DNA of 62,265 nucleotides, counting the filler. It is 7 parts of 7 records of this genome, joined end to end, with 100 filler letters (N's around TTAATTAATTAA, not from the genome) between each part and the next. Parts side by side here need not be neighbours in the genome. Positions count along the whole stretch, not along the records: positions 48,481 to 53,547 come from SRR31156797_23015; 6 more parts are not named here. One strand, given 5' to 3'. This document shows positions 2,255 through 53,647 of the stretch, one piece after another. The notes under the pieces were generated by a model. It was given only the letters and a program-made list of their open reading frames with translations. It searched no databases and was not told where the DNA came from. A program made the translations under genes and the position numbers. Position 1 is the first letter of the stretch. Each line of letters begins with the position of its first letter.

Positions 2255-2861
2255 CATGTTGTTAAAAAAACTATTTGAAGATGATTATAAAGAGATTTTA
2301 GCTAACGATAACTTAGCCATTGATGAATTTGTAGAGAGAAATTCACAAAAACAATTAAAATATATTGCTCCAATTAGTTCAATTTACTTACACAAAAGCA
2401 ATAATGAAATGTTTCTGATACTTGACTGTAAAAAATCATCTAAGGAATTTATTGTAAAAAGTATTAGTGAGTGTGAGTCTAGAATTTTATCTTATGTGAA
2501 TTTTGGTTCAAAGTTAAATGAACACAAAAACTACTTAAAGTTCAATACAACTTTGATAGTTATGGCAAATAGGGATTTTGACTATACTTTAAAACTTGAA
2601 ATAGAAAAATCAAAAAGAATTTGTAGAAAAATTATTATAACAGTTGATGATACAGAGGAGATGACTGTAAGTGAAAAGGTTATGATTCCTTTTTGCTTTG
2701 AATTTAACGAAGGATTGGATATAGATTCTGAAACTGCACTTGTAGATCAACTAGAAAATCTTTACCCAGATGACGGTTCAATTCGAAATGCAATACTAAA
2801 AACTGGTGATTTATCTAAAGAGGAGTTCACTATGATAGTAAGGTGGTTAGAAAATGAGTAA
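2247..2861 (+). CDS. lmuC: ABC-three-component middle component (LmuC-like)
   Basis: 204 aa, overlaps both neighbours by 8 bp; EIEKSKRICRKIII resembles the motif I recall for middle components; mainly a positional call. Confidence 0.6.
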   Translation: MNSMLLKKLFEDDYKEILANDNLAIDEFVERNSQKQLKYIAPISSIYLHKSNNEMFLILDCKKSSKEFIVKSISECESRILSYVNFGSKLNEHKNYLKFNTTLIVMANRDFDYTLKLEIEKSKRICRKIIITVDDTEEMTVSEKVMIPFCFEFNEGLDIDSETALVDQLENLYPDDGSIRNAILKTGDLSKEEFTMIVRWLENE

Positions 2862-5283
2862 AAAGCTAATTAAGATAAAATCAGTTAAGCTAGTGAACTT
2901 TAAACTGTATGAAGATATTACTTTTGACTTTAATGGCAAAAACTTTATATTGGTATCAGGTTCTAACGGATTTGGAAAGTCAACAGTTCTAGATGCAATA
3001 GAATGGTGTATTACAGGAGAGATAAAAAGAATATCAAATAATTTCAAACGTCGTAACACCAATCAAATTGAGCAAAACAGAGCTGATAATAATAATGGAA
3101 TAATTAAGAATAAAAATGCAGGGAAAGAAGATATTATTAGCGTAACTATGGAAGTCATATTTGGTGATGATGTATTAACTGTAGAGCGAAGTCAAATTGA
3201 GGATAAATTAGATGCTAAGTCTAATTTTGAGTTTATCAGTGAAACTTCAGAGCAAAATAAAGATGAGTTGATTACAGCCTTTAGTACAAGTTCCTTTTAT
3301 AATTACAATGTATGTGATACATATAAAAACTATGAATTTTTAACTACCAATAGAAAAAACGTACTTGAAATGTTCAGAGAATTTATAAGGGAAAGGCCAG
3401 AAATTGAAATTGTAACAACTAATTTGAAAAACGTTGTAGAGAAGTTGAACGAGAAAAAACAAAGTAAGTCCAAATTATTAACTCCAGAGGCTGACATTAC
3501 AAACATTCAAAAGAAAATTCAGAATTTGAAATCAGATATTAAACTTTTGGATTATCCAAACTCAAAAATATATGATAGCGAGTCCACTAATTTGGACAAT
3601 CTAGATAAAAAAGAACTGTCAAATCAATTGTCAGTTTTGACGGAACATGCGTATAAGTTTGCATTAGTAAAAGTGCAAGGCAGAATAGAGTATTTACGAA
3701 CTCAAGAACTTATGACTCAATTAGATAAAAACATTGAACTTGTAAGAAGAAGTAGTGAGGAGCTTTATTTAGGATTTAATAGTAATTATCACCTTAACAA
3801 CTATGCATCAGAATTAAGGGAACAAATTGAACTACTGAAGGTAGAATATGATAAAATTGACAAGCTAAACAAAATTAAGTCAATTAATGAGTTTATTACT
3901 AATCATAAACTAAACTCTTCTAAACAGCTTCAAAATACTCTTTCAAACTTAGATGTATCTATCAAAGAATATAATTCACTTACAAAACAGATAGATGATA
4001 CGGATAAAGGAAATAAAATCATAAAAGTTCTAGCTGACATCGTTGCGAGTAAAGAAGAATTTTTAGCGTATCGTAATGAAGGTAACACTAGCTGTCCTGT
4101 ATGTGGTGAAGATTCAAGTTTTGAAAAGTTCGTTGAAATCAGTCAAATTGGATTAGAAGCAGAGAAATATTTGAGCAATAATAAATCAATATTAGCAAAC
4201 TTGAAAAGAGAGCAAAGAGATATTCAAGAAAAGAGCCAAGAAAGCAAATACCTAGTAAAACAAATTTTGAGGGAAATGATTGGTAAACTTATTGAGACGA
4301 AAGAAAAGGATTATGAAGTAGCGAAAGCGTTCTATTCAGAATTTAAGACTCTTTTCGAATTCGCTAATGTAAATAATATAGACATTAATACAGATATATT
4401 ATCCTCTTTAGTTAAGTCTAGAGAATCTGAAAAAAGCAAATGTGATAAGGTTCTCAAAACATTAGTTGAAAAGCAATTATTAGATAGTTTATTTGCACTT
4501 CTTAATTTTGAGACTGATTTTAACTATGATGAAATTAAGAGTATGCTTAAACTGGAAAGTGAGTTAGAACCATACATTAAAAATGCGATATCAATTGATG
4601 ATTTCCAATTTAAGTTGTATCAGGTGAAAAGAGCCTGTATTAAAGCTTTCTTGGATAATCATGAATTAACAGAGCTTGAAACAAATCATAGTAAAATGCT
4701 TGATGAAAACAGAAAAGTTAATGAGCAAACCATTATACTTGATAGACAAATTAGTAAGGCTAATGGAAAAATTAACGAGTTTGAGCGTCTAAGCAAGGAA
4801 TTGGAAAAAAAGGAACTAGAAAATGTTGGTCCTTTTCTCGAGGGTATATTTAGTAAGATTGTGAAACACTCTTCGATAAACGGAATAAGATTAACAAGAG
4901 ACAATTCTGTAAAAGGAGGAGGCATTGTTTTACAGGATAATGACAAGTCAAACTTAATGAACATTCTTAGTGAAGGGCAGTTAGGTGTTATGATGATGTC
5001 TTATTATTTTGCGAATATGTATAGAAGGAGAGAATCTAATAATATTAAGGTGTACATGATGGATGATGTAACAAATACATTAGATGACATTAACCTTTTA
5101 TCTTTCATTGACATGATAAAGTACATTCTGAGTGATGAAGAAAGAGTAATAGATCAGTTTTTTTTCTCTACTTGTGACGAAAACTTAGAACGTCTATTTA
5201 TACACAAACTAAAAAGTTTTAATATTCCAGGCTTAAGTGTGAAGTTCAATTCATTTGGTAAATACAAAAGTGAAAATATCTAG
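2854..5283 (+). CDS. lmuB: SMC/Rad50-like ABC ATPase (Lamassu LmuB)
   Basis: Walker A GSNGFGKST, long coiled coils, zinc hook CPVCG, signature LSEGQ, Walker B/D-loop YMMDDVTNTLDDIN. Confidence 0.85.
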   Translation: MSKKLIKIKSVKLVNFKLYEDITFDFNGKNFILVSGSNGFGKSTVLDAIEWCITGEIKRISNNFKRRNTNQIEQNRADNNNGIIKNKNAGKEDIISVTMEVIFGDDVLTVERSQIEDKLDAKSNFEFISETSEQNKDELITAFSTSSFYNYNVCDTYKNYEFLTTNRKNVLEMFREFIRERPEIEIVTTNLKNVVEKLNEKKQSKSKLLTPEADITNIQKKIQNLKSDIKLLDYPNSKIYDSESTNLDNLDKKELSNQLSVLTEHAYKFALVKVQGRIEYLRTQELMTQLDKNIELVRRSSEELYLGFNSNYHLNNYASELREQIELLKVEYDKIDKLNKIKSINEFITNHKLNSSKQLQNTLSNLDVSIKEYNSLTKQIDDTDKGNKIIKVLADIVASKEEFLAYRNEGNTSCPVCGEDSSFEKFVEISQIGLEAEKYLSNNKSILANLKREQRDIQEKSQESKYLVKQILREMIGKLIETKEKDYEVAKAFYSEFKTLFEFANVNNIDINTDILSSLVKSRESEKSKCDKVLKTLVEKQLLDSLFALLNFETDFNYDEIKSMLKLESELEPYIKNAISIDDFQFKLYQVKRACIKAFLDNHELTELETNHSKMLDENRKVNEQTIILDRQISKANGKINEFERLSKELEKKELENVGPFLEGIFSKIVKHSSINGIRLTRDNSVKGGGIVLQDNDKSNLMNILSEGQLGVMMMSYYFANMYRRRESNNIKVYMMDDVTNTLDDINLLSFIDMIKYILSDEERVIDQFFFSTCDENLERLFIHKLKSFNIPGLSVKFNSFGKYKSENI

Positions 5284-5564: not shown

Positions 5565-5664
5565 NNNNNNNNNNNNNNNNNNNNNNNNNNNNNNNNNNNN
5601 NNNNNNNNTTAATTAATTAANNNNNNNNNNNNNNNNNNNNNNNNNNNNNNNNNNNNNNNNNNNN
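5565..5664. other. Artificial contig spacer (also 19475-19574, 27651-27750, 41577-41676, 48381-48480, 53548-53647)
   Basis: Identical N-run + TTAATTAATTAA (stops in all six frames) + N-run; base composition changes across several of the junctions. Confidence 0.98.
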
Positions 5665-5665
5665 C

Positions 5666-7744
5666 ACCATTATCGATACTATATTCATAAGGAGCAGTTC
5701 CTCCTGTAACGTTGGTAAAAGTAATTACACCATCGTTACCACCATTACATGAAACCATTGGATTTGGAACAGGGTTAAATGCTATTGCATCCGGCTCATC
5801 AACAACTGTTGGATCTGCCGGACTTTCGCATAAATTACCATCTCTAACAACAATATTATATGTACCTGCTGATAATCCCAAGAATGTATTGCTTGCCTGG
5901 AAAGTAGCACCATTATCGTTACTATATTCATATCCGGCACCTGAACCTCCAAGTACGTTGCTCACAACTATTTGTCCATCTGCTCCACCATTACAAGTTA
6001 CATCAGTAGGAGTAGCATCAAATGTAATTTGATCAGGAGCATCTAAATCAATTACTACAGGGTCACTTTCACAATTATTACCATCTCTTGCTACAATATT
6101 GTAACTACCCTCAGGCAATAAGAATGAATTTCCAGCCTGCCATGTGGCTCCACCATCACTACTATATTCATAAGGACCACCATCACCACCTATTACCGTT
6201 GTAACAGTGATAGTACCATTATCACCAAAACAAACTGGTTGAACAACATTTGTTGCAGTTATTTCAACTTGAGCAGGTTCGGTTAAAGTAACAGGATTTG
6301 CACCCCATATAGTCACACAATTATTTTGATCTCTTACTTGTACATTATAATCACCTGCAGGTAAATTTGTAAAGTTACCTCCATTAGGGAAATATGAAGT
6401 ACCGCCGTTTATAGAATAAAACCTTGTACCAAAGCCACCTGTTGAAGTAATCTGAATTTGACCATTACTATTTCCAAAGCAACCAGTTACATCAGTAGGA
6501 GTTACAGAATTTATAACCAACACAGGAGGTTCAACAATGGTTAACTGCCCATAATAGAATTCGCAACCATAATCGTCAGTAGCATAAATATCATAATCAT
6601 CACCATCTAATCCAGTAAATTCATATGAAAGATCAGAGGTAGTAAAGCTTGTAACTGTTCCAGCAACAACTGCTTCTATTCGATAAGTGTAAGGCGCTTG
6701 CCCGCCATTAACAAAAATTTCTATTGCACCATCTCCGGCTCCACCGCAAGATACTGCAGTAGTAGTTGCATTTGTTACAGTAAATACAGGCGCTTCTAAT
6801 ACTGTTAGTTTTGGAGTTTCAAGAATACCTGTAGGACATCCATTATCGTCTGTAATTTGGAAGGTATAACTTGTGGGCTCCAAATTTTCAAATACATTGT
6901 TTCCTGTTTGTACGATTGCACCACCTGCATCATAAGTATAAGGAGGTGTACCACCTGAAACATTTATTGTAATTCTACCATTATCGTCACCATTACAAAC
7001 TACGTGGTCAATTGTTGCTCCATCGTAAGTTAACTGTGTTGGCGCAGTAATCTCTACAGGGTTTCCACCCCATGCTGTTTCATCCACACCTTTTCTTGCT
7101 ACAACATTGTAAGATCCGGCAGAAAGTCCGAAGAATTCATTCGCAGCTTGCCAGGTTGTACCATTATCAATTGAATACTCATCTGCATCATCAACAATAA
7201 TCTCAATTATTCCATCATTGGTATTAAAACATGAGGCATTTGTGAGATTTACCGCTGTAAAAGTTGGTGCAGCTCTTGTTTCAACTTCATTATCTTTATC
7301 TGTAGTTGTTATATTTGGAGTTTGGGCGCTTAACTTCTCCTTATCAGAATCTGAACTATTTATATTAATGTGGTTATTCAAGTTACCACTTCCTTGTTCG
7401 ATTGATTTCTCAATCATTTGATCGGTGACCGTTTTTGATGTATTCAACTCACCGGATACGGTCAGCTTTACACCGTTATAGCCATCAATCTCTCCAGCCT
7501 CCCAGTGAAGGTTAGCTATTATAGTGTTTTCATTTAGTTGATTGGTTTGGTCAATACCATTATCCAGAATGACAACATTGTCATCCATTCCCGGTATTTT
7601 ACCGTTGGATTCAAAACTGTATTGATCCGTTGACCAGTGCCCGGGGTCTTCCCAGTTACCTGATCCATTCATCCAGTAATAATTCTCTGCGGCTAGTGTA
7701 CCTAAGAGAAACATTGAAATAATAAGTATAATTATGCGCCTCAT
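5666..7744 (-). CDS. SprB-repeat surface protein/adhesin, 3' truncated at contig end
   Basis: Signal peptide; repeated V(T/S)CxGxxDGxI...GGTxPYxY...DxNxC units typical of SprB repeats; Bacteroidota -7 box TATATTTG upstream on the minus strand. Confidence 0.85.
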
Positions 7745-7972
7745 AACTAAAAATTTATCTTGTTATCAATAGAAACTTCTTCATCATTGCAAATATAAAC
7801 CAAAATAAGGTTCAACTCTTTGTTAGCAAAATAGTTTTGACGACTCAACGGTATTGTCGGATAAAATCCATAATCGATATGATAACCGTTAACTTTATCA
7901 TAACTTTTTACTGATAATACGCATGAATAAAGGGTTACGTTGCTTTTTTAATCACTTCATATCGACGATTCA

Positions 7973-8719
7973 TCAAATAGACGAATCTTTCAAAATCTTT
8001 GACGAATAGATAAAATCTTTGATGATTTGATTATCCGTTTGAAGCAAATTGTCTTTAGAACCAACCCATTCAACCTGTCCATTTTGTATAAAAACTATTT
8101 TTTCTCCTATTCCTACCATTGAATTCAAATCGTGAGTATTTACGATGGTCGTCATATTGAACTCATGCGTTAGTTCCATAAGCAATTCATCAATTACAAC
8201 CGCCGTTTTTGGATCCAAACCACTATTGGGCTCATCACAAAATAAATACTTTGGATTCATGCTAATAGCACGGGCAATGGCCACCCGTTTTTGCATACCT
8301 CCACTAATTTCTGAAGGTAATAAATGATCTACGTCTTTTAGGTTTACCCTGTCAAGGCAAAACGCCACACGTTTCATTTTCTCTTTTTTACTATGATTCG
8401 TAAAAACATCGAGCGGAAACCGCACATTGTCGGCTACCGTATATGAATCAAATAATGCACTGCCTTGAAATAACATCCCCATCTCGCGGCGTACATTTTT
8501 TTGTTTTCGTTTATTTAATTTATGAAAATCTCTACCGTCATATAGCACACTTCCCTGATCAATATTGTGCAGCCCTACAATTGATTTTAGCAATACGGTT
8601 TTTCCTGATCCACTCTGACCAATAATCAAATTGGTTTTACCCTGCTCAAACTCCACCGTAACGGATTCGAGTACGGTTCTTCCGGCAAATTGCTTATGTA
8701 AATCTACAACGGTAATCAT
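7973..8719 (-). CDS. mlaF: Mla/Mce-type ABC transporter ATP-binding protein
   Basis: GQSGSGKT, LFQGSALFDS, ISGGMQKRVAIARA, DEPNSGLDP; overlaps mlaE by 4 bp. Confidence 0.9.
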   Translation of the reverse strand: MITVVDLHKQFAGRTVLESVTVEFEQGKTNLIIGQSGSGKTVLLKSIVGLHNIDQGSVLYDGRDFHKLNKRKQKNVRREMGMLFQGSALFDSYTVADNVRFPLDVFTNHSKKEKMKRVAFCLDRVNLKDVDHLLPSEISGGMQKRVAIARAISMNPKYLFCDEPNSGLDPKTAVVIDELLMELTHEFNMTTIVNTHDLNSMVGIGEKIVFIQNGQVEWVGSKDNLLQTDNQIIKDFIYSSKILKDSSI

Positions 8720-19432: not shown

Positions 19433-19574
19433 AGGATATAGGCTAATTAACGTGAGTTCGATGTAAATTATAAANNNNNNNNNNNNNNNNNNNNNNNNNN
19501 NNNNNNNNNNNNNNNNNNTTAATTAATTAANNNNNNNNNNNNNNNNNNNNNNNNNNNNNNNNNNNNNNNNNNNN

Positions 19575-27624: not shown

Positions 27625-27750
27625 GAATGCCTCCGGCGGCTTAAACCCTTNNNNNNNNNNNNNNNNNNNNNNNNNNNNNNNNNNNNNNNNNNNNTTAATT
27701 AATTAANNNNNNNNNNNNNNNNNNNNNNNNNNNNNNNNNNNNNNNNNNNN

Positions 27751-41575: not shown

Positions 41576-41678
41576 GNNNNNNNNNNNNNNNNNNNNNNNN
41601 NNNNNNNNNNNNNNNNNNNNTTAATTAATTAANNNNNNNNNNNNNNNNNNNNNNNNNNNNNNNNNNNNNNNNNNNNGG

Positions 41679-44600
41679 GGAATATATAAATTCATCTATT
41701 GAATTCAGAGCATCAACGGATGGCTCTAAATCGGAGAAAATATAATTATTTCCTGAAATGTTTAAATACAGCAAACTAGATTCTTCATTTATAATGGTAT
41801 TTTTTAATGCGCTGGTTTCAAAAGCTGTGGTAATTGGACCGCTAAGATTATTATTCGATAAATCGAGCCAAACCAATGAATCAAAATCAGCAAGAAATTG
41901 AGAAATATCGCCTTCCAAATTTAAACCTGAAAGATCGAGTTTTGTAATTTTCCCGTTTTCAAAGGTAACTCCAGACCAGTTATACACAGAATCGCCGGTC
42001 CAAATTTCCTGCAGTGGGGCAAAAGTGGTTCTCAGTTGCTCCAGAAATGTTGAGTCGGTGGAGTTATAAAATACTTTTGTTAGAATTGTTGCTGAAGTTA
42101 ACGTAAGATCGGGCAATAGAGAATTTGTAATTTCGCAATGGAAATTAGCTTCATTGTCATCCATCCATGCCGTTTTCGTAAATGTTTTTTCAGCACCACT
42201 TTGTAACGATATTCCATTTCTAAACCATTCAAAGTTGTCGTTCTCGTCGGCATTATAATTTTGGATGTTAAGAATCATTGTGTCGCCTAAAATATATTCG
42301 AGTGTATCTGCTTCTCCAACTCCGGGTTGAGGATTGTAATTAAAATCAGATTTAAAACTATTGTAATTATCCCATTTTGTAACTGGTGTTAAGTCTTTAA
42401 ATGTGAGCTTATTGTTGGTCAGCGAAATTGAACTTAAATTAACCAGGCTATCCAGTTTTGGAACTTCGCCTTCAAAATTTCCCGACGATAAGTCAATTAC
42501 TTTCAGTTCGGTTAATTTATTTAATTCTTCAGGAATTTTGCTTAAATTATTGTTGGGCATCTCAAAACCGGTAACATGGCCATCTTCAACGAGAATTCCA
42601 AACCATTCGTCAATTGAATGGAAGGTTGTGTCCAGCCAGTTTTCGCTGCTTATCCATTCCGGGCCGTTCGCATTATTATAAATCTCAACCAGAGTTAGGT
42701 ATTCAGAAACAGGTACGCCGGCACCGGAAATTGTTCCTTCAATTTTAACGTTGAAAGGTTTCGAAGATACAGATAACTCGGTTGCAATTGTATTTGTAAT
42801 TATACAATAATAAGTTCCGGCTGCCGATGAGTCGGCCTGTGAAATAAAAATTTGTTTTTCAGTTTCTGCAGGAAGTAAAACACTGTCTTTAAACCATTGG
42901 AAAACATCAGCTGTTCCTGGCGTATAATCAGGTATTTCAATGGTTAATTCATCGCCCCAGCTTACTGTTACTGAATCATTTCTTCCTACGTCGTATTGTG
43001 GTGAATAAACAAAACCATCTTCAAAAAGATTAAAACTACTCCAGTCGAAAACCGGTTCAATATTTACCGAAGTATATAAGTTCGAATCGATATAAAATTG
43101 TGTAATATCTGGTAGGTTTATCATTCTTAACGGGATTTCACCTTCCAGTAGATTATTACTAAAATTTATGGTTTCTAAATCAAACATTTTCCCGATATCG
43201 CTGGTGATTTCACCCGATAATTGATTTTTTGAAAGGTTTAAATGCTCCAGGTTATATAAATCATCAATCCAGGTAGGAATTGTTCCTGAAATATTGTTTG
43301 AATCGAGCCTTAGCGTTAATAATTCTGTTAACCCGGTTAGAGCTTCGGGTAAGGTTCCGGTAAGGTTATTACTTGTTAATTTAATTTTTGTTACATGCCC
43401 GTTTAAAATGGTAATACCGAACCAGTCTTCGACAGACACAGTAGTTGTATCGAGCCAGTTTGTATTGTTTTCCCAATTATCGCCATCTAAAGTATTGTAA
43501 AATTCTTTTAAAGCATTGTATTCCGAAATTGGTATTCCAGCGCCAGCTGTCGATTCACTAATATTTAGTGTTGTGTTTTTACTAAAAAGAATTAAATCAC
43601 CGGCCACCGGATTTGTGATTTTGCAATTGTATTTACCGGCATCGGAAAGTTGCAGATTAGTTAATTCCAAAGTGGCTTCTGTCTTTCCGATAAGTAATGT
43701 TCCGTTTTTGTACCACTGGTATTTATCCGATGGACCGGCGAAATAATTATCGATTGTTACAATTATATTTTCAGTAATACCTTTACTGATGGTTTTAGAA
43801 ATTCCAATTGAATCTTGCGGGGAGTATATAAAATCATTGAAATTGTTATAATTATCCCATGAAAAAATAGCTTCAATATCGTTAAATTGTAATTTATTTC
43901 CTCCTAAATATAAGGTATCCATTTCCAGTAAATCGGCCAGTTCATCAGGTATTTGCCGGTTATTTTCAACTGATAAACTTTTAGTATAATAAGAATTGAG
44001 TGATGATTCAAGGAGACCAAATTGATTGTTTCTAATGTTAATTTTAAAGGCATTCATTAAATTGGCTAATTCTTTTGGAAGCGGCCCCGTTATTTGATTG
44101 CCATCAACTAATAACCATCCAAGATTGACTAGATTGCCAATGCTTTCAGGTATAGTTCCACTTAAATTATTGTTTGATAATCCAAGGTATTCAAGATTAA
44201 TTAAATTTCCAATCGAATATGGAATTTCACCGATAAAGTTATTTTCCATTAGAGATAAATGTCGAAGTTTCTGTAGATTGCCTATTTCATCAGGAATTGG
44301 TCCTTCAAGTTGATTTGCTTCAAATGCTATTCTTTCCAGGTTTGTTAAATTACCGATTTCTGAAGATATACCTCCGCTCAATTTACATTCAGCAATACTT
44401 ATATCCCTTAAATTTGTTAATTCATAAAAGCCATCCGGAATTTCTCCACTTAATTCGTCGGTTACAATTTGTAAAATTTCCAATTGCGTTAAATCCTTAA
44501 TACTGTTTGGAATGCTGCCATTAAGATTATAGTTATTATATGCGTCAAAATTAATTTGGGTAACATGTCCATTTTCTACGGTAATTCCAAACCAATCATT

Positions 44601-47600
44601 TACTGTGTAATTGACCGTATCCAGCCAGTTTGTACTATTAGTCCAATTGTCTCCATTCGTTGAAGTATAAAAATCTTTTAATGCATTATATTCTGAAACT
44701 GGAATTCCGGCACCTTTTGGTTCAAGTACATAAGTTGTTTTGTAATTGCTGTATATTACGAGATTTGGAACTGCAGGATTAGTTATTTCCAGGTGATAAG
44801 TGCCCGAATCAGACTTTGAAACCGGAGATAATTCAATAAAGAAATTGGTTTCTCCTTCTATAGGAATTAGTTCTTTACACCATTGAAACTGGTCGTTTGC
44901 TGATAAAAACTCTTTTTCAACTTCAAAAGTAAAGTTTTCTCCAACAAATAAATCTGCATACTCTGTTGTATCTACCTTTTGTTGAGGTGCATAGAAAAAG
45001 TCATCAGAAAAATTTGAGTAATTTGATACAGAAAATGCAGGAATTAAATCTTCAAAAATTAATTGATTGTTTATCAACATCAGCGTGTCCAGGTTAACCA
45101 GCAAATCGGTTGCATTGAAATTGAATCCGGTTAATTTATTATCACGCATCTCAAGGCGCCGAAGATTTGGTAAAAGAATGTTTTCTTCGAATGCCGAATT
45201 CTGCAGATTATTATCATTTAATAAAACCTGGGTAACATGCCCGTTTTCAACGGTTACACCATACCAATCGGCAACAGAATATTCAGTAGTGTCGAGCCAA
45301 TTGGTATTGTCTGTCCATTCTTCTCCATTGGTTGAATAGTATAAATCTACAAGGCTGTTGTATTCAGATATAGGAACACCTGAACCTGCCGGGCCACAAT
45401 TGTCCGAATAACTTGCTTGCGCATCTTTGTACCAATGAATATAGTTTTGAGTTAAAGGCCAATCAACTTGAATGCAATACAGATTTGGATTATTTTCAAC
45501 ACGTAATGTAGATAACTGCCAGTTAGAGCTATTTTGTATATTTAAATATTCAAGTTCAGGATAACAGTATACACTAAACAAATTAAGATTATTTGAAAGA
45601 TCCAATATTTTGATATTTGTATTATTGGCATTGAAAACTGATAATGATTGGAAATCTTCAATACCTGTCACATCTGAGATATTTGAATCGTAAATAATAA
45701 CTGAATTTATCGTTCTAATGGCACATGTCGGGACAGAATCATTTAAGTCTCCATTGTCGTAGCCATTGTTAATTAAATACTGTTCAAAATTGTCATCCGG
45801 CACATATGTCATTTCCTGTTTGTATGATGAACAGTTTGTTGAATAGCCCGTAAAAGGATCTTTATACCAATTGCCATATTCATATGAAGAGTAAGGATCG
45901 TCAACTTCCACACATGTCAAATTTGGATTATCCCTGATATCCACGTACATATTATGGTTATTTCCATTTTGTAAATTTAAATTTATCAATTGATTACCTT
46001 CACCATGGAAAGTATACAGATTGGTATGGTGATAAATATCTAAGTTTGTGATCTGGTTATCAGCGCAATGTAGGTAACGAAGTTCAGAACAATTTGATAC
46101 ATCAATTTCTGTTAACTGATTATTCCTACAATTTATAAATGTTAGATTTATATTATAGCAAAGATTTAACGAACTTAAGTTGTTATATGCACAAATCAAA
46201 CGGGTTAATTCTTGATTATTGCTAAGGTCAAGCTCGGTAAGTTCATTTTCCCAGCAATAAAGTTCTTCCAACATCAAATTATTGCTTAAATCAAGTTCAC
46301 TTATATTATTTGAATCGCATTCTAATTTGAGTAGATTGGAAAAATTTTCAATACCTGTTAGATCAAAAATATTTTGACTGGTTATTTTAAGATAAGCAAC
46401 AGTATCGATAGCATTAGTGGGCACCGAATCATTCAATTCTCCTGAATCATAACCTAAATCTATTAATGCCTGTTCAAAATTATTATCGGGAATATAAGCC
46501 ATTTGTATACCGCAATCTGTCGAATATCCGGCTTGTTCATCAATGGACCAATTTGTATAACCCTCAGTGGCTGTTGGGTCGTCTACTGCAATACAAAAAA
46601 GGTTGGGATTATTGCGTAGATTCACAAACATCTTGTGATTGTTTCCATTCACAAGATCAACATAGCTAAGATTATTGTTGCTGGCATTCAAGACAGATAA
46701 TTTTGAGTTTATACTGAGGTCAAGCTCAGACAGGTTATTTGTTGAACAATTAAATTCTTCAAGTGAAGTATTGAAGTTTAAATTGATGTATGTTAATTGA
46801 TTATTAGAACAATCAAGATATGTTATACTAAGTATCTCTAAATTAAGTTTGCCTATGAAATTATTTGAACAAGCGAGAGTCTTAAGGGATGCAAAGTTTT
46901 CAATTCCTGTGAGATCGTGAATATTTCGATTGCTAACATTTATTACTTGTATGGTATCAATTGCTCTTGTTGGCACTGAATCATTCAATTCACCTGAATC
47001 AAATCCTAAATCAATTAATGCTTGTTCAAAATTGTCATCAGGAATATAAGTCATATGAGTAATACAATTTAGCGAATAACTTGCATGGTCATCCTTAGAC
47101 CAATTGGAATAGTTATTCGATAGAGCTGGATTGTCTACTTCAATGCAGAAAAGATTCGGATTATCTGAGGCGTCAACCCACATATCAGCATTGTTCCCGT
47201 TTTTAAGGTTAAGGGTAGTTAATTTATTTTGTTCACACCAAAGAAATGTCAGTTCAATATTCTTACTTACATCTAATTCTTCGATATCATTTATAAGGCA
47301 CCATAATTCTTGAAGTACAAGATTGGAATCGAGGTTGAGAGATGTCAGATTATTACCTGCACAATATATGTAAACTAATAATTTATTTTGACTTAAGTCC
47401 AAAGTAGTAAGCTGGTTGGCATTACAAGAGACACTTGTTAAATTCAAGTTATTTGAAACATCAAATTCTGTTAATTGGTTATAGTTAAAACTGACCTCTA
47501 TTAAATCACTATTTGCGGTTAAATCTACACTTGTAATATTATTAGTATTACAATTTAAATTTTCTAGGGAGGTAAATCCTTCAATACCAGTTAAGTCATT

Positions 47601-47804
47601 TATATTTTTGTTATTTAAATCAAGTTCCAAAATTGGTTCAATATTCACCGTAGGAACCGAATCATTCAACTCCCCTGAATCGTACCCTAAATCAATTAAG
47701 GCTTGTTCAAAATTATCATCTGGAACGTAGGTATTTTGAGAGAAAGATATATTACCAACTAATAAAAAAATACAAAGTGTAAAAAGAAGGTTTTTGATTT
47801 TCAT
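41679..47804 (-). CDS. Giant secreted leucine-rich-repeat / Ig-domain surface protein, 3' truncated
   Basis: Signal peptide; four Y(V/I)PD(D/N)NFEQ-capped LRR blocks; four G(V/I)P(I/V)SEY-capped modules with LRRs (some plant-like NxLSGxIP) and Ig domains (QWYKNG...DAGKYNC). Confidence 0.88.
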
Positions 47805-48089: not shown

Positions 48090-48380
48090 TTACCAACGGT
48101 TACCACCACCGCGATTGTCGTCTCTTCTGCCACCACCACGATTATCGTCTCTTCTGCCGCCGCCGCCACGGTTATAACCACCGCCGCCACCGCCACGGTT
48201 GTAACCACCACCGCCATAACCACCGCCACCGCGGTTGTCTCTGCGTGGTCGTTCTTCGCGAGGATTAGCCTCTTTTACAACAATCTCTTTGCCATCAACT
48301 TCGCTTTCGTTTAAAGCTGAAATAGCAGCTTTTGCCTCTTCGTCGTCTGACATTTCAACAAAACCAAAACCTTTTGAGTT
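48090..48380 (-). CDS. RRM RNA-binding protein with RGG/Gly-rich tail, 5' truncated
   Basis: RNP1 motif SKGFGFVEM upstream of the track's Met; Gly/Arg repeat tail. Confidence 0.92.
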
Positions 48381-48609
48381 NNNNNNNNNNNNNNNNNNNN
48401 NNNNNNNNNNNNNNNNNNNNNNNNTTAATTAATTAANNNNNNNNNNNNNNNNNNNNNNNNNNNNNNNNNNNNNNNNNNNNTTCTATAGTTTTACGATAAA
48501 ACTATAAATTCCTAATTATTACAGCACTATAAAGTTGCAATATTTTTGCCGTTCCGATGTATTCAACCTATTCAGAGGAACCCAAAGATCCTTTTCATTT
48601 ATTTGAAAG

Positions 48610-50664
48610 TTACTCATCATGCCCTTCTGTTTGTGTTCTCTTGCTGGCAGAAGCTAACGCTTTGAGCCCTTTTAGAACAAGATGTACGCACTCATCTACA
48701 AAAGGGGATTCCATTAATCGCTGATAATCGTCTGAATTAAGGCCGGAAGAATGTGCCAAGTCATCAACTGATATGCCCTCTAAAACTGTCTTAATCTTCG
48801 TGTAGTCGGCATTCTGATTCTCTTGTTTGGCTTTTTCCTGAAGTTCAAAATACCCGGCATTATTTGTAATCTGCCAGTGTTCGGTAATCGGTGAAGTAAT
48901 AGTCTTAGTTGTGATTGTTTTACAAATCTGGCCAACCACACCGCCGAAAGCACCAAGCAAAAAAATTGGCTTATTTTTTTCTATTGAAATAATTATCTCT
49001 TCGAGAACTCCCGGCATCTTTCCGTGATAACCCGCGAGTTTCCCACCGGCACATATGCGTGCATGAGATAACTCAATAGATTTCTCTCGCATCCGTGTAA
49101 GGCAACGGGACCAGACATATTTATTTTCCGTTCCACTTGGAGCTATGAAGACATTCTTATCGATGTCTTTTGCAATATCACTTGGAATATCATGCTCAAC
49201 AGATTTAATGATCCCATTGTACTTGGCTCTCCAAGCAACAATTTCTGGATCTGATGCATACAGAGGCCAAGCCAGATGATTCTCAACATGAATGTTATCG
49301 GTATTGAGACGGGTTTTTAATGCAATTGCCTCGTCGAGTATAAATTGCGTAAATCCATCTTTGCGAAGGTCTCCTCCATAAATAATTGTTCCGGCCCTCG
49401 CAAGAAGGTGTCTTGACAGATCTTGGGATAGTCTCTTCAGGTGATCAGCATGTAAATGCTGATCTGAATAATTACTGACAGGGTTATCAGAGATTGAAAT
49501 ACCTATTCTACAACTACCCAAAGTCCCATCTTCAGCTTTGCTCCACAAGGGGGTAAAAGCATCCACTTCATAATGAGAAAGCCAGTCTGCCTCCTCGGAG
49601 TAGAGCGAAGGTTCAGGGTAACAAATTTTTTGTTTCCCACTATTTTTTAGGTCGATTACCTGACGGATTTCGGGCGGCCTTGAAATTATGGCGCAATCAT
49701 TATCAACCCAATTTTGGCTTTGATAGTATTCGAGTGATTTTTGAGCATGCAAGTGGCGTATCGTTTCAAGAATGGTAGCAATTAAGATACGCAATATATC
49801 AGGCTCACTAATCGGAGTGTCCGGTGACACATGCACACAGGGAACATTAGAGCCTGCAGGGAAAACCCTGTCTTCAAAATCTTGAAGGCAGTCAACCGCT
49901 ATGATTGGCCGCTGATGTTGTTTAGCGCAAAGGACTTCTCTCTGACACCAATATCTGGAGGAATATGAGTCACTTCCTATCGCAACCAATGTGGATTCTT
50001 TTATGTGCTTAATAATTTCTTCGTCAAATCTGAAGCCCGGAGATATTTCAGTCGCATCGAAAAAGCGCGACATATTAGTATCATCGATGAATCTATAGAT
50101 TAATTCAGCATGGATGCGGCCAGTATTTCCAGCTTTTGCATGGCTTAAAAAAATATTTATTGACGAACACTTGCCAGGATCTTCTTCATTGATTTCAACA
50201 AAACCGTGCCTGTATACTTCATGAGCCATGGCCAGCACTGCCCGCTGCTCTCTCAAGTCCCCCAGCCATTCATACGATCTCAGAAAATTTAAATTTTTAA
50301 GACTGCCATCGCTTCCATGACTTAAACCATTTCTATCAATGGCTATTGGAACCGCCCGCAAAGTGTTCGATAGCGACAGTTGATCAATGTATAATTTCCA
50401 TGGCTCCCGCCCTAATGTATTTACACTTGTGAACACAAATACAATATCTTTTGCAGCCTGTTGTTCTGGCGAGTGTAATGGCGGCTGATCTGGGTTTTCT
50501 GAACTATAGAAAAATAGAGGCATGTTTAATCCACGAGAAAACGGGCGGTCGACATCACGCGCAAAGCTGGATCTGACAGTATCAAGAATAGTACCCACGG
50601 ACTCTTCATCTGCTGGATTCCAAATGAAATGTATGGCTAAGGGTGGGTTGTATTCTGTTGTCAT
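48610..50664 (-). CDS. TIR + SLOG (cluster 2-like) fusion protein
   Basis: Central TIR (IFLSHAK...SRYWCQREV, catalytic Glu); C-terminal SLOG (IGISIS, IIYGGDLR, LTRMRE, GKMPGVLEE, LGAFGG). Likely start MTTEY at 50664 (TGATG overlap). Confidence 0.85.
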   Translation of the reverse strand: MTTEYNPPLAIHFIWNPADEESVGTILDTVRSSFARDVDRPFSRGLNMPLFFYSSENPDQPPLHSPEQQAAKDIVFVFTSVNTLGREPWKLYIDQLSLSNTLRAVPIAIDRNGLSHGSDGSLKNLNFLRSYEWLGDLREQRAVLAMAHEVYRHGFVEINEEDPGKCSSINIFLSHAKAGNTGRIHAELIYRFIDDTNMSRFFDATEISPGFRFDEEIIKHIKESTLVAIGSDSYSSRYWCQREVLCAKQHQRPIIAVDCLQDFEDRVFPAGSNVPCVHVSPDTPISEPDILRILIATILETIRHLHAQKSLEYYQSQNWVDNDCAIISRPPEIRQVIDLKNSGKQKICYPEPSLYSEEADWLSHYEVDAFTPLWSKAEDGTLGSCRIGISISDNPVSNYSDQHLHADHLKRLSQDLSRHLLARAGTIIYGGDLRKDGFTQFILDEAIALKTRLNTDNIHVENHLAWPLYASDPEIVAWRAKYNGIIKSVEHDIPSDIAKDIDKNVFIAPSGTENKYVWSRCLTRMREKSIELSHARICAGGKLAGYHGKMPGVLEEIIISIEKNKPIFLLGAFGGVVGQICKTITTKTITSPITEHWQITNNAGYFELQEKAKQENQNADYTKIKTVLEGISVDDLAHSSGLNSDDYQRLMESPFVDECVHLVLKGLKALASASKRTQTEGHDE

Positions 50665-51215
50665 CAATGTGTTACCCCGCAAATTTGACATACGCCATTG
50701 TACTTCATCATATCCTGAGAGTTCTGGATTAGATGCGTCCGGGAAGTCCTGGCCTGATATGCATCTTCAATCCATATAGATAGCTCCTCTTTTAAACACG
50801 GATAAGCCCTGTATCGTGCATAACAATCCGACTCACTTTTTGCCCAATTCGCGTTCATGCGTGGGGGCAAATGCGCTGACGTTCCTTGGCTTGGCAAAAG
50901 GATTCCAATCAAGCCATTTGGAGTGTATTGCCCCTGACGCAGAGAGCTCTTTATCTCCCAGTCAACGTATCGTCGACTATGTGTGCAGCTTCCTATCAAA
51001 ACAATCGTCACAGTACTGTCACCAAGATATTTTTCCCTTATGCGCTGCATTACATAATCAGTGTTCGTGCTGTTGATAAAATCATCATTGTTGTTGGCTC
51101 CCAACACCTTGGGAATGAAAACGGTAGAGAACTCTTTAATAAAAGCATCTACCTCGTTCCGATCCCCCTTGTAATGAGAAATAAAAACCTTCCTTCTATT
51201 TGTACTTGATACCAT
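50664..51215 (-). CDS. thsB: ThsB-like TIR protein (MTH538/DUF1863)
   Basis: RKVFISHY, IREKYLGDSTVTIVLIG, RRYVDWEIKSSL, LPPR; start MVSST after GGAGGG. Confidence 0.88.
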   Translation of the reverse strand: MVSSTNRRKVFISHYKGDRNEVDAFIKEFSTVFIPKVLGANNNDDFINSTNTDYVMQRIREKYLGDSTVTIVLIGSCTHSRRYVDWEIKSSLRQGQYTPNGLIGILLPSQGTSAHLPPRMNANWAKSESDCYARYRAYPCLKEELSIWIEDAYQARTSRTHLIQNSQDMMKYNGVCQICGVTH

Positions 51216-51217
51216 TG

Positions 51218-51841
51218 TCAGTCCCTCCAATGTGTTTGAGCTTCGGTTCTATTATTTGAAAAGCTGTCTCGGCCGTTTGTTGGTAAATATGTTTTGCGTC
51301 GCTGAAATGCATCATGAATCCATTGGCGCAAATCATTTGGAAAAGTCGGCCAGGTATATATTTTGGCGAATCCGCATTTAATATTATCGTTCAGCCGTGG
51401 AGGAATTGTATATGGATTATAGACGCTGCCATTTTCTGTATATTTTAAAACAGATGCATTCATTCCGTATGGCAGCTGCGCCGAATAGGTAGGGAGCAAC
51501 AACCCCAATAAGCCGGTTCTTGAATTATTCTTTGTGTCACGAATGCCTGAGGCTATTTCCCAGTCCACATGCTTTCTGCGCCAAGTTCCTTGCCCGATAA
51601 GCACAAGTGTTATGGTGGCATCAGAAATAAAATCATCACGAATCAACTGGCGGATACGTTCTGTGGGTAAATAGGGGTTAATATCACCATCCCCGACAGA
51701 CCTTGAAACGAACCCGTTAGATTGTTCGCCCCATTGAGTTTCAAGATGCTTTTTGTAGTAATCATCTGCATGATGAAAGCTTATGAACGTCTTGTGTTTG
51801 GGGGTTATATTGTTATTGTAAAAATTGTAAAAGCTCATCAA
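51218..51841 (-). CDS. thsB: ThsB-like TIR protein (MTH538/DUF1863)
   Basis: HKTFISFHH, IRDDFISDATITLVLIG, RKHVDWEIASG, IPPRL. Confidence 0.88.
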   Translation of the reverse strand: MMSFYNFYNNNITPKHKTFISFHHADDYYKKHLETQWGEQSNGFVSRSVGDGDINPYLPTERIRQLIRDDFISDATITLVLIGQGTWRRKHVDWEIASGIRDTKNNSRTGLLGLLLPTYSAQLPYGMNASVLKYTENGSVYNPYTIPPRLNDNIKCGFAKIYTWPTFPNDLRQWIHDAFQRRKTYLPTNGRDSFSNNRTEAQTHWRD

Positions 51842-52359
51842 TAACTTTTTTGACCCAGTGATTTCATTATGGTAGATTCAAAGTTCCGGGCGTTATTCAC
51901 CGAAGCTGATCTCTGCGAGAAGTCCTCAAGCCCAATGCTTTTTTCTAACAGTAGAGACTGTCTTTTGTATTCCCTTGCAAAAACATCTATATCGTTATCA
52001 AACCTCAGCCGAGGCCATTCAAGAAGGTATTCCGGCAATGTTTCCTGCCGGTTATAAACAGGTGGATCTGGCAGAGGTGTAAAGCTCGAAATAACCCGGG
52101 GCATTTCTCGTGCAGTGCCTATTTCAAAAGGCACCCACCATGACCCCTTTGTGTTTTCTGTGATAACAGCAAGCAATGTGTCGCATTTGCGCAGTCTGTC
52201 GACCAGTAACGGAGTGAGGCTGGATTTTCCCCGATTATTTCCAAGCTCCTTATCCATATCATCGATATAACAGGTAATATCGTGGGTGCGGTTAAGTCGC
52301 CAAAATACCTTTTTGGCTAATTCATCGTCTTTGGTTGTATGCGATATAAATATTGGCAT
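51838..52359 (-). CDS. Stand-alone TIR domain protein
   Basis: PIFISH, CYIDD, CDTLLAVIT, SWWVPFEIG (catalytic Glu), LPEYL. Confidence 0.85.
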   Translation of the reverse strand: MPIFISHTTKDDELAKKVFWRLNRTHDITCYIDDMDKELGNNRGKSSLTPLLVDRLRKCDTLLAVITENTKGSWWVPFEIGTAREMPRVISSFTPLPDPPVYNRQETLPEYLLEWPRLRFDNDIDVFAREYKRQSLLLEKSIGLEDFSQRSASVNNARNFESTIMKSLGQKSY

Positions 52360-52370
52360 TGAATCACTCC

Positions 52371-52604
52371 TTACTTTTTATCCTTAGGAGGGCACGGGTC
52401 GTTTCCGTAACTATTGCCAGCCCGGATTTTTCCGTCCACACCATGAATTTTGGTGTCCGACTTTTGGTTTCTGGCGATGTTTTCAGCCTTTTCAATAGCC
52501 TGTGCCTGCGTGCGAGTGACCTTGGTCGCCTTGCTGTTATTTTCTCCCTTAACCGCCCAACCATCGGGATGTTTTACAACGTGTTGATTTTTACCTTTAG
52601 CCAT
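52371..52604 (-). CDS. DUF2188 family small protein
   Basis: HVVKHPDGWAVKGE...TQAQAIEKA...IHGVDGKIR...SYGNDP is the DUF2188 pattern; GGAGG RBS. Confidence 0.85.
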   Translation of the reverse strand: MAKGKNQHVVKHPDGWAVKGENNSKATKVTRTQAQAIEKAENIARNQKSDTKIHGVDGKIRAGNSYGNDPCPPKDKK

Positions 52605-52848
52605 GACTACGCCTCCATGTATTGGTTAACGATTTTTTTAAAGTAATCAATATGTTTAATTGCACCCATAATACAAAATTTAACTAAAGATTCTCCAATA
52701 TGCAATATACACACCACAGCCTATTTATCTATGGATGCAATTGCAGTATCATTTGTTAGGGTCAATTTCTGTTTATGATATGCCAAATTTTGTAACATTA
52801 ACGTACCATTTCCATTGGGATTTCCTTACCCTATGATTGATCAAAATG

Positions 52849-53043
52849 TTATCCAGACTTCGAACGTAGACTATCAGCATAACAGGCCAAAGCCAGTTCA
52901 ATTATCTGCCCAAAAGATGAAGGAGTTCCGGCCTGTATGCTGGCATCACGAAGACGGTTTAGTTCATTATAGGCGTTACCACTGATGATTGCTGATATTT
53001 GTTTTTTGCCGTCTTTTTTTGTTTTTTGGGGTTCTTTGCCCAA
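52849..53043 (-). CDS. Possible ribbon-helix-helix DNA-binding protein
   Basis: Strand KQISAII, helix NAYNELNRLRDA, helix SFGQIIELALACY; TTG start lies inside an inverted repeat. Confidence 0.4.
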   Translation of the reverse strand: MGKEPQKTKKDGKKQISAIISGNAYNELNRLRDASIQAGTPSSFGQIIELALACYADSLRSKSG

Positions 53044-53223
53044 CCCCCCGAAATGTCCGACAAGGTATTTTTTATACTATAACATGCTGATATTATTAGT
53101 TCTCATGCATAATTTGCAACCCAGCATTGAACAAACAAAGAAAAAAACGAATTTTAAATCTTTCATTAATTTAATAGGTTAAATGTGCTACCGGACTTTT
53201 CGGGGGGTTGGGCAAAGAACCCC
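53028..53223. mobile_element. Pair of Tn3-like terminal inverted repeats (MITE-like remnant)
   Basis: GGGGTTCTTTGCCCAACCCCCCGAAATGTCCG at 53028 and inverse CGGACTTTTCGGGGGGTTGGGCAAAGAACCCC ending 53223 (one mismatch); no target-site duplication seen. Confidence 0.55.
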
Positions 53224-53379
53224 ATGTTACAAAAAATAGCAAGCAAATAATGAAAAAACAATACAAAATCAATATGTTATAATGAATGGGGAACGGGAAT
53301 TTTAATTGTCGTTGAGGGGAAAAAATAATTGTCGTTGATCAGGTTCCTCTGTTTCTCGGAAGTTTTGAAAGAGCGGTTT

Positions 53380-53514
53380 ATGGAATACCCCCACATCCCA
53401 CAGCATTTCAGCAAAGAAAAACTCTTTGAACATTTTACTTTAACCCAAAATGAAAAATATAATCTGAAACAATGGCGAAAAGAACAAAATATACTTGGCC
53501 TTCCGATTCAGTGA
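53380..53514 (+). pseudogene. Tn3-family transposase N-terminal (DUF4158-like) fragment
   Basis: LFEHFTLTQNEKYNLKQWRKEQNILG resembles the HFTL...R...NRLGFA motif of Tn3 TnpA N-termini; stops after 44 aa. Confidence 0.55.
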
Positions 53515-53647
53515 ATATTTTATTCCGGTGCCATTCTAATTTTCGGANNNNNNNNNNNNNNNNNNNNNNNNNNNNNNNNNNNNNNNNNNNNTTAATTAAT
53601 TAANNNNNNNNNNNNNNNNNNNNNNNNNNNNNNNNNNNNNNNNNNNN

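Follow-up and report, generated by a model that had tools for sequence, protein, structure and literature searches.

We analyzed a stretch of DNA of 62,265 nucleotides (nt), hereafter called the window, and found in it a compact cassette of five genes that encodes a DUF2188 protein (g5), three stand-alone TIR proteins (g4, g3, and g2), and a single protein in which a TIR domain is fused to a SLOG domain (g1). By architecture the cassette resembles type III Thoeris, and by curated models it is not a member of that type. Close relatives of the cassette are nested between hsdS and hsdR of type I restriction-modification (R-M) operons. We see about an even chance that the cassette is a self-contained Thoeris-like system, in which g2, g3, and g4 would make a signal derived from nicotinamide adenine dinucleotide (NAD+), the SLOG domain of g1 would sense that signal, and the TIR domain of g1 would answer it. 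The NAD-derived signal, its sensing by SLOG, the NADase output of the TIR domain, and phage defence itself are all elements that we infer. The Thoeris-like, TIR-based character of the cassette had been proposed in an earlier model reading made from the letters alone (the sequence-only reading), and the present analysis supports it.

Five coupled genes and their TIR and SLOG domains

All five open reading frames (ORFs) are intact and lie on the minus strand. By Pfam, g5 (52371 to 52604; 77 amino acids, aa) matches DUF2188 (E 3e-21), g4 (51838 to 52359; 173 aa) matches TIR_2 (E 1.3e-9), g3 (51218 to 51841; 207 aa) and g2 (50664 to 51215; 183 aa from its ATG) match ThsB_TIR (E 7e-16 and 2e-16, respectively), and g1 (48610 to 50664; 684 aa) combines TIR_2 (E 1.3e-6) with SLOG cluster 2, PF18163 (E 8.7e-62). 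The sequence-only reading had described five co-oriented genes joined by overlaps or by gaps of 11 bp or less, and we recovered the ORFs where it had placed them. From g5 to g4 there is an 11-bp gap, with GGAG ahead of g4; from g3 to g2 there is a 2-bp gap (51216-51217); and g2 and g1 meet at TGATG (50662-50666). These last two junctions are as that reading gave them. The overlap between g4 and g3, which it had given as ATGA, reads TTGATG, with TTG and TGA sharing 4 nt, or TGA and ATG sharing 1 nt. Residues of g1 are numbered here from the ATG at 50664, which overlaps the g2 stop; the longest possible ORF begins at 50691 (693 aa), yet homologues start near its residue 10.

We found that the catalytic Glu, which the sequence-only reading had noted in all four TIR domains, is conserved in the homologue alignments. 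Among the stand-alone TIR proteins it is at least 95% conserved at E87 of g2 (32 distinct sequences), E95 of g3 (20), and E79 of g4 (14). The g2 residue aligns with that of solved Thoeris ThsB structures (6LHY, 9B7D) over the RYEI/DWEI motif, and a passage of the Ofir 2021 preprint reports that the ThsB mutation E85Q abolishes defence. In g4, E79 lies in the motif WVPFEIG, and the protein aligns to the solved TIR 8BTN_B (E 6e-5); a sequence search of solved structures returned no match for g3. ThsB models of PADLOC match g2, g3, and g4, and g2 and g3 also match PDC-M50B weakly. The best-conserved partner of g1 is g2 (mean column identity 71% in an alignment of 22 sequences), with C77, H79, C176, C179, and H183 invariant. 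Together with C131, these residues make up a set of Cys and His that is invariant or nearly so and ends in a C-terminal C-x-x-C-x-x-x-H; the set might bind a metal, an uncommon feature among ThsB-type TIRs.

The stand-alone TIR proteins were further examined across 88 loci of the g1 family, 8 from genomes and 80 from metagenomes; counts over this set include near-duplicate loci and short contigs, and ORF calling undercounts small genes. A g2-type TIR stands directly upstream of g1 in 40 of the 88 loci, g3 (at 50% identity or more) and g4 are each found in 15, and a stand-alone TIR of any of the five families modelled is near g1 in 70. Their number varies from one to four per locus around a constant g1. 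Several divergent ThsB TIRs per system is a pattern reported for Thoeris in part of the Ofir 2021 preprint, and the variation fits the earlier suggestion that the several TIRs serve as multiple sensors.

The g1 protein was predicted with a mean predicted local distance difference test score (pLDDT) of 81.1 and a predicted template modelling score (pTM) of 0.85, and it has three domains (all on the minus strand): an N-terminal domain (residues 1-165; 50170 to 50664), a TIR domain (residues ~167-305; 49750 to 50166) with the catalytic Glu E243 in WCQRE, and a SLOG domain (residues ~383-672; 48649 to 49518) that holds the proposed ligand pocket. The SLOG clusters were reportedly defined by Burroughs and colleagues in 2015, in computational work. 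PF18163 matches g1 with 209.5 bits against a cut-off of 25.3 over profile positions 2-264 of 264, which makes g1 a full-length member of that family, and TIR_2 covers residues 180-268 of the 693-aa ORF, N-terminal to SLOG cluster 2. In agreement, atlas clusters labelled "SLOG cluster2/TIR" match g1 with a score of 0.97. All 38 close homologues keep E243, as do all 75 sequences of a deeper set that reaches down to ~24% identity. In these 75 sequences, F172, S174, D203, and W239 complete the invariant set of the TIR domain, and invariant in the SLOG domain are S390, G431, M525, R526, G541, G552, E556, G571, G574, and G575. When the predicted SLOG domain was compared with solved structures, the best match was the SLOG domain of BcThsA with 3' cyclic ADP-ribose (3'cADPR; Z 15.1, root-mean-square deviation (rmsd) 3.0, 185 of 196 residues aligned; Foldseek E 5.5e-6), followed by TM1055, SeThsA, DprA, TRPM2, and LOG enzymes (Z 11.6-13.3). 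The fold matches of the g1 TIR domain included the RPS4 TIR (Z 10.5), BcTIR (10.5), the SARM1 TIR (10.2), and EcThsB (9.8). The invariant TIR active site and SLOG pocket, together with the nearness to the ThsA SLOG, strengthen the proposal that the TIR-SLOG fusion is the candidate receptor and effector.

The N-terminal region, of about 170 aa in the sequence-only reading and unassigned there, likewise has no Pfam family. Folded alone, its 165 residues gave a pLDDT of 86.5 and an alpha/beta, flavodoxin/TIR-like fold, whose nearest matches were the RPS4/RRS1 TIR (Z 10.4, rmsd 3.2, 132 residues aligned), Cat1 (9.6), and AbTir and PdTIR (9.0), with generic flavodoxin-like folds close behind (receiver, vWA, and LacI; Z 8.5-9.1). 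Foldseek returned nothing for this domain at E <= 1e-3, and its best TIR match had E 8e-3. The domain is weakly constrained: in the 75 sequences P49 is the sole invariant residue, and W89 is conserved at 90% or more. We read it as a non-catalytic alpha/beta domain, perhaps of TIR-derived origin. A comparison with the TIR domain of g1 itself lent no support to a duplication (hhalign probability 0.1%).

The remaining protein, g5, is small and basic and equals the PADLOC candidate PDC-S16 (E 3.5e-35). It is near g1 in 14 of the 88 loci, and a sequence search of solved structures gave no match to it. We surveyed DUF2188 in 301 genomes and found 19 independent loci in 17 of them; a TIR gene was a neighbour at only 1 of the 19, namely the cassette of genome G002. 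The other neighbours were varied (GmrSD, helicases, SIR2-like DUF4917, SMODS, a pPIWI-associated nuclease, and a DNA methylase), and one surveyed DUF2188 gene sits between hsdS and hsdR with no TIR there. A listing in the Yirmiya 2025 preprint places DUF2188 among putative effectors; we rejected it as a dedicated effector on the diversity of neighbours. Because these neighbours are diverse defence genes, g5 would be a generic small accessory of defence islands and not a TIR-specific partner.

Proposed Thoeris-like mechanism and comparison with described systems

In a short description in the Yirmiya 2025 preprint, which cites van den Berg et al. 2024 (Cell Host & Microbe 32:1427), type III Thoeris consists of several TIR proteins and a SLOG-domain protein, acts against phages, and has an uncharacterised signal. 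Compared by that description and by the NCBIfam models, the cassette is alike in having separate TIR proteins (g2, g3, and g4) plus a SLOG-bearing g1 and no other effector domain. It differs in that TIR and SLOG are fused and carry an extra N-terminal domain, whereas ThcA is a stand-alone SLOG of 184 positions, and in having a DUF2188 gene and an embedding in type I R-M operons. With type I Thoeris the cassette shares ThsB-type TIRs with a conserved Glu (g2 and g3), the SLOG receptor fold, and several TIR genes per SLOG protein, but g1 has a TIR domain where ThsA has SIR2, and its SLOG is of cluster 2, not STALD. A third group comprises the TIR plus SLOG-cluster-2/3 proteins of nucleotide-centric conflict systems (PF18163, PF18180), to which g1 belongs as a PF18163 member; for the cassette family, the R-M-embedded five-gene form and the spread across phyla were established here. 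TIR-SLOG antiviral systems are mentioned in a passage of PMC9503650, which places TIR, DrHyd, and SLOG in one clade of nucleotide-processing domains. In the literature searched, we found no paper describing or testing the TIR-plus-SLOG-cluster-2 family, its R-M embedding, or its linkage to Nmad2 and MazG.

In the mechanism we propose, g2, g3, and g4 would sense infection and turn NAD+ into an ADP-ribose-derived signal, which the SLOG domain of g1 would bind. Binding would activate the TIR domain of g1, with oligomerisation as the probable route, and this domain would then consume NAD+ as the effector, in the position that SIR2 holds in ThsA; the N-terminal domain might serve in assembly or autoinhibition. 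The whole would be a type III-like abortive-infection cassette whose signal makers and effector are all built from TIR and SLOG parts.

Several observations weigh against this mechanism. All five proteins fall short of the curated Thoeris models: the NCBIfam model ThcB4 (NF058526, 375 positions) scored 20.9 bits on g1 against a cut-off of 220, neither ThcA (NF058525, cut-off 110 bits) nor the ThsA models of PADLOC matched g1 at E <= 0.1, and the ThsA-type STALD model gave 14.1 bits against a cut-off of 24, the SLOG domain being of cluster 2 by sequence. A profile search of the PDB with g1 found no cluster-2 SLOG structure, so that the ThsA SLOG is the nearest solved structure partly by default. 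Among solved folds, the hydroxymethyl-CMP N-glycosidase MilB matches the g1 TIR domain best (Z 11.8), in a tie with true TIRs and GTPase folds. In addition, g2 is still 67-73% identical where g1 is only 41-57% identical, unlike a fast-evolving phage sensor, and genes of a nucleotide module stand near g1 in 46 of the 88 loci, a linkage for which Thoeris by itself gives no reason. Functional data on the cassette family were absent from the literature searched. Finally, P551-G552 and E555-E556 of the SLOG domain are invariant or nearly so in the 75 sequences; we take these residues to resemble the LOG motif, and they could signal catalysis instead of binding.

The curated models also bear on the earlier suggestion that the cassette may match a described multi-TIR Thoeris subtype. 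Type III Thoeris is indeed the closest, but its models were not reached, and no exact match to a described subtype was found that would take away the novelty of the cassette. NCBIfam type III models did not match g2, g3, or g4. On distant members of the g1 family, ThcB4 scored 33-43 bits on the TIR half and ThcA 19-23 bits on the SLOG half. When the ThcB4 profile was searched against genomes, the sub-threshold matches in genomes G001-G003 were the g1 homologues themselves, and at E <= 1e-20 there was no match in any of the 401 genomes of the class of G001 or in 14 control genomes.

The LOG-like residues lead to an arrangement that we consider unlikely, in which the roles within g1 are reversed: the SLOG domain would be the catalytic effector, a LOG-like hydrolase of nucleotides or ADP-ribose derivatives, and the TIR domain would make or amplify the signal. 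Type III ThcA is modelled as SLOG only, implying that SLOG alone can be the output in that system; TIR and SLOG are split into separate genes on Klebsiella and Pseudomonas plasmids; and the solved folds that match SLOG include LOG and PpnN-type enzymes (Z 9.8-11.6). Yet the closest solved structure is the non-catalytic, ligand-binding SLOG of ThsA, at Z 15.1 versus 11.6 for LOG, and the TIR domain of g1 has a complete invariant active-site set, as expected for an enzyme.

Family spread and linked nucleotide-modification genes

The g1 family is large: at E <= 1e-3 we counted 860 homologues among the candidates scored and, in a set of 50%-identity cluster representatives, 2262 matches, of which 428 reached E <= 1e-30. 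With minimum values of 50% identity and 60% length per gene, all five genes were recovered together in 10 of the 88 loci, where they are 88-96% identical. By title, the loci from genomes belong to Proteiniphilum, Desulfospira, Trichloromonas, a spirochete endosymbiont, Marinicella, Desulfosarcina, Ca. Loosdrechtia, and an actinomycete metagenome-assembled genome (MAG), which we take to span at least five phyla, the assignment of short MAG contigs being uncertain. The hsd operon and cassette are shared across several phyla at 81-92% protein identity. Partial sets also occur, with g3-g2-g1 in locus L006, a ThsB gene with g4 and g1 in L005, and g4-g3-g2-g1 without g5 in L058, as do broken copies, with an ISAZ013-type transposase within g4 in L002 (7273-8563) and g1 split into two ORFs in L004 (6301-8372) and L015-L017.

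In a FastTree phylogeny with midpoint root (78 sequences: the window g1 and 77 from the loci, each of the latter 600 aa or longer), the hsd-embedded multi-TIR form was one derived clade. At four plasmid loci, full-length relatives of 27-29% identity are accompanied by additional TIR proteins alone, with TIR and SLOG either fused or split. The N-terminal and TIR domains on one side and SLOG on the other are encoded by two adjacent genes in L093 (Klebsiella plasmid pKpnB199, 5977-7982), L115 (a P. veronii plasmid, 5968-8012), and L092 (a viral contig, 1905-3955), the layout implied by the type III Thoeris models ThcB4 and ThcA. Viral contigs yielded only one distant locus (28% identity), which gives no hint of a mainly phage-borne family. 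No SIR2, membrane, or caspase effector was present in the annotated neighbourhoods (L001-L007, 18 selected metagenome loci, and the four plasmid loci).

In loci where g1 is 41-62% identical to that of the window, another ThsB-type gene (ThsB') is coupled to Nmad2, and downstream a MazG/MazG_C gene is coupled to one for a protein of the UDG superfamily; elsewhere there is, in addition, a thymidylate-synthase-like gene (TS-like), a 5-hydroxymethyldeoxyuridine (5-hmdU) DNA kinase gene (HMUDK), or a dCTP-deaminase-like gene (DCD-like). Near g1, Nmad2 was found in 40 of the 88 loci, ThsB' in 38, MazG_C in 26, UDG-like in 24, and HMUDK, TS-like, or DCD-like in 16. ThsB' itself is a full-length match to a PADLOC ThsB model (E 3.6e-65). 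One locus, L013, has the order hsdS, g5, g4, g3, HMUDK, TS-like, ThsB', Nmad2, g1, and its g1 is 89% identical to that of the window; this hybrid shows that modules were recently exchanged between R-M-embedded and nucleotide-gene contexts. In L014 (7286-12072), a g1 of 76% identity together with the kinase, the synthase, ThsB', and Nmad2 stands directly upstream of BrxA, BrxB, and BrxC, so that its surroundings are BREX in place of type I R-M. L013 and L014 nest in or beside the hsd-embedded clade. When Nmad2 was sampled independently (5 of 301 genomes), none of the 5 loci had a TIR-SLOG neighbour. Because the plasmid relatives show only TIRs beside TIR-SLOG and Nmad2 occurs independently without it, the recurring minimal core is one or more stand-alone TIRs plus TIR-SLOG, and the nucleotide genes are frequent yet dispensable.

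This linkage bears on a reading to which we assign a low probability, namely that the TIR-fold and SLOG domains act on (deoxy)nucleotides and not on NAD+. They would cleave the N-glycosidic bonds of pyrimidine nucleotides, whether normal or modified, or would sense these nucleotides, in the service of nucleotide-pool manipulation or base-modification chemistry, with the hsd-embedded cassette as a trimmed version. Apart from the number of loci with nucleotide-module genes, it would account for the persistence of the co-occurrence despite shuffled gene order (L038, L059, L025, L027, and L013), for the hybrid in which g5-g4-g3 are joined to these genes before g1, and for MilB as the top fold match of the g1 TIR, and it agrees with the clade of nucleotide-processing domains outlined in PMC9503650. 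However, the window cassette and its entire clade are without nucleotide-module genes, as are the plasmid relatives; Nmad2 does without TIR-SLOG wherever it was sampled independently; MilB is tied with other folds; and ThsB' matches a canonical ThsB model.

Type I restriction-modification operons and the relocated copy

At 6 of the 8 genome loci, g1 is followed directly by an HsdR of 1067-1105 aa and a YgjP-type peptidase, with hsdM, variable genes, and hsdS upstream. The co-oriented order hsdM, hsdS, cassette, hsdR, YgjP was found in L002, L004-L007, L009-L012, L015-L017, and L055-L056. In total, hsdR lies within two genes downstream of g1 in 21 of the 88 loci (74 of which have any downstream ORF), some hsd gene is near g1 in 26, and none is near in 62. 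The coupling seen within the cassette extends to its flanks: hsdR starts 11 nt before g1 has ended, and 2 nt separate the end of hsdS from g5. Moreover, hsdR and hsdM are about as conserved as the cassette (83-96%), so operon and cassette move as a unit. We regard the cassette as cargo carried by a type I R-M operon that spreads horizontally; it sits between hsdS and hsdR, with translational coupling at either end. The gap between hsdM and hsdS is a second variable slot, holding Bro-N, KilA-N, RhuM-Fic, or 23S-rRNA-IVP genes (L002, L004, L006, and L015-L017). In L002, an additional Fic gene lies between g1 and hsdR.

The principle that defence genes are embedded in type I R-M operons has been described (10.1101/2024.01.29.577857), and a figure legend of that work states that PrrC is found almost only in this position. 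The cassette is alike in being nested between hsd genes, with g5 equal to PDC-S16; PrrC differs in being an anticodon nuclease without sequence relation to the cassette. In the main text of that work, DUF2188, SLOG, and the present cassette have 0 occurrences each. Both the embedding principle and a Thoeris type with several TIRs plus SLOG were already known.

The copy in the window has left its operon. Its contig (48481 to 53547, 5067 bp, with N spacers on both sides) keeps, on the minus strand, an hsdR remnant (48584 to 48620), whose ATG lies 11 nt inside the end of g1 and whose ten codons, MMSNFQINEK, are the hsdR start of L004, and an hsdS remnant (52605 to 52635), in which the final 8 codons (IVNQYMEA) and the stop are left, ending 2 nt ahead of the g5 start codon. 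By BLASTN, likeness to the hsd loci ends at ~48584, whereas L001 and L007 run on into a full hsdR, and the conserved hsdS stretch immediately upstream is missing from the contig. In run X1, possibly the source sample, a separately assembled contig (4773 nt, depth ~212x) covers 48481-53253 with 1 letter different and includes both junctions; in run X4, a relative 90-95% alike diverges from the window at exactly 48584 and 52635, and past 52635 its by-eye translation gives the conserved C-terminal motif of hsdS. The remnants and the data of these two runs indicate that the window copy was excised from an hsd operon with ~30 bp of each flank kept. A candidate case of sharp borders in L001 was dropped, since L001 continues into hsdR.

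These edges also change the weight of an argument in the sequence-only reading, which had reasoned from the lack of an effector on this contig. The contig is only 5 kb long and ends 129 bp after g1; because it is a fragment of a larger hsd setting, that lack is not evidence by itself, and the puzzle of a missing effector is partly a product of the truncated contig.

The embedding could also mean that the cassette is a guard wired to the type I R-M system in the manner of PrrC, latent until a phage anti-restriction protein disables the Hsd complex, which we regard as very unlikely. The overlapping or 2-nt junctions on either side, the hsd genes near g1 in a share of the loci, and the PrrC precedent are in its favour, and the unusual conservation of g2 would suit a protein that partners a conserved host complex; however, most loci have no hsd gene nearby, the same hsd operons hold unrelated inserts (Bro-N, KilA-N, RhuM-Fic) so that the site looks like a general cargo slot, the window copy has left the operon with its five genes still intact, and the loci above ~80% identity probably represent a single element that spread recently, so that they would not count as separate observations. 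Highly improbable, too, is that the cassette consists of stacked or decaying units (e.g., DUF2188 with g4 apart from g3, g2, and g1, or a relocated copy no longer expressed), as the partial sets, the broken copies, the mention of DUF2188 in the Yirmiya 2025 preprint as a putative effector that accompanies TIRs, and the loss of the native upstream operon together with 14 promoter sites against 13.7 expected might suggest, because all five genes are tightly joined, the full set recurs at high identity, DUF2188 has a TIR neighbour in only 1 of the 19 surveyed loci, and the window ORFs are intact on a contig of ~212x depth in run X1.

Some further features of the window lie outside the cassette. 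Within the DNA that replaces hsdS, a pair of inverted repeats (53015-53059 and 53192-53236; 45 nt, 89% complementary, 132 nt apart, beginning with GGGG) looks like a miniature transposon-derived element; Tn3-family ends presumably begin with GGGG as well. Extra contigs and higher depth for this region in runs X1 and X2 suggest a multi-copy repeat. A 61-aa ORF on the plus strand (53329 to 53514) shows a weak likeness to DUF4158, which covers the N-terminal part of Tn3-family transposases (E 2.3e-4; 21.5 bits against a cut-off of 27.4). The promoter scan took its expected number from shuffled sequences, and terminators likewise showed no excess over shuffles. The window (1-62265) consists of seven contigs joined by six N44-TTAATTAATTAA-N44 spacers (N runs at 5565-5664, 19475-19574, 27651-27750, 41577-41676, 48381-48480, and 53548-53647). 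Because the spacers separate contigs that differ in G+C (about 0.29 to 0.61 over the seven), genes across spacers are unlinked and may stem from different organisms. The other contigs of the window have no hsd or nucleotide-module genes. On a neighbouring contig, a 2059-aa repetitive, leucine-rich-repeat-like surface protein (41625-47804, minus strand) reaches the contig end, and a small glycine-rich, RNA-binding-type protein is encoded at 48090-48353 (minus strand); both are unrelated to the cassette.

TIR signalling is common to bacterial, plant, and animal immunity, and for type III-like systems, made of TIR and SLOG only, the signal and the output are described as still unknown in part of the Yirmiya 2025 preprint. 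The g1 family is stable in its three-domain architecture, and the cassette is compact, intact, highly conserved, and directly clonable. A broader idea, which we hold to be fairly improbable, is that TIR-SLOG cassettes form a nucleotide-surveillance arm that complements type I restriction, their TIR-fold and SLOG domains, of N-glycosidase type, sensing or destroying the modified pyrimidine nucleotides (of the hydroxymethyl-dU/dC type) made by phages whose modified DNA evades restriction; if true, it would explain both the embedding between hsdS and hsdR and the linkage to thymidylate-synthase-like, 5-hmdU kinase, MazG, dCTP-deaminase-like, UDG-like, and Nmad2 genes. The embedding and the linkage to base-modification enzymes offer concrete starting points for testing how abortive-infection modules come to be combined with restriction systems and with nucleotide metabolism. 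If the fused TIR-SLOG protein is a ligand-gated TIR NADase, the cassette would represent a minimal Thoeris, in which one fold serves for sensing, signalling, and killing.

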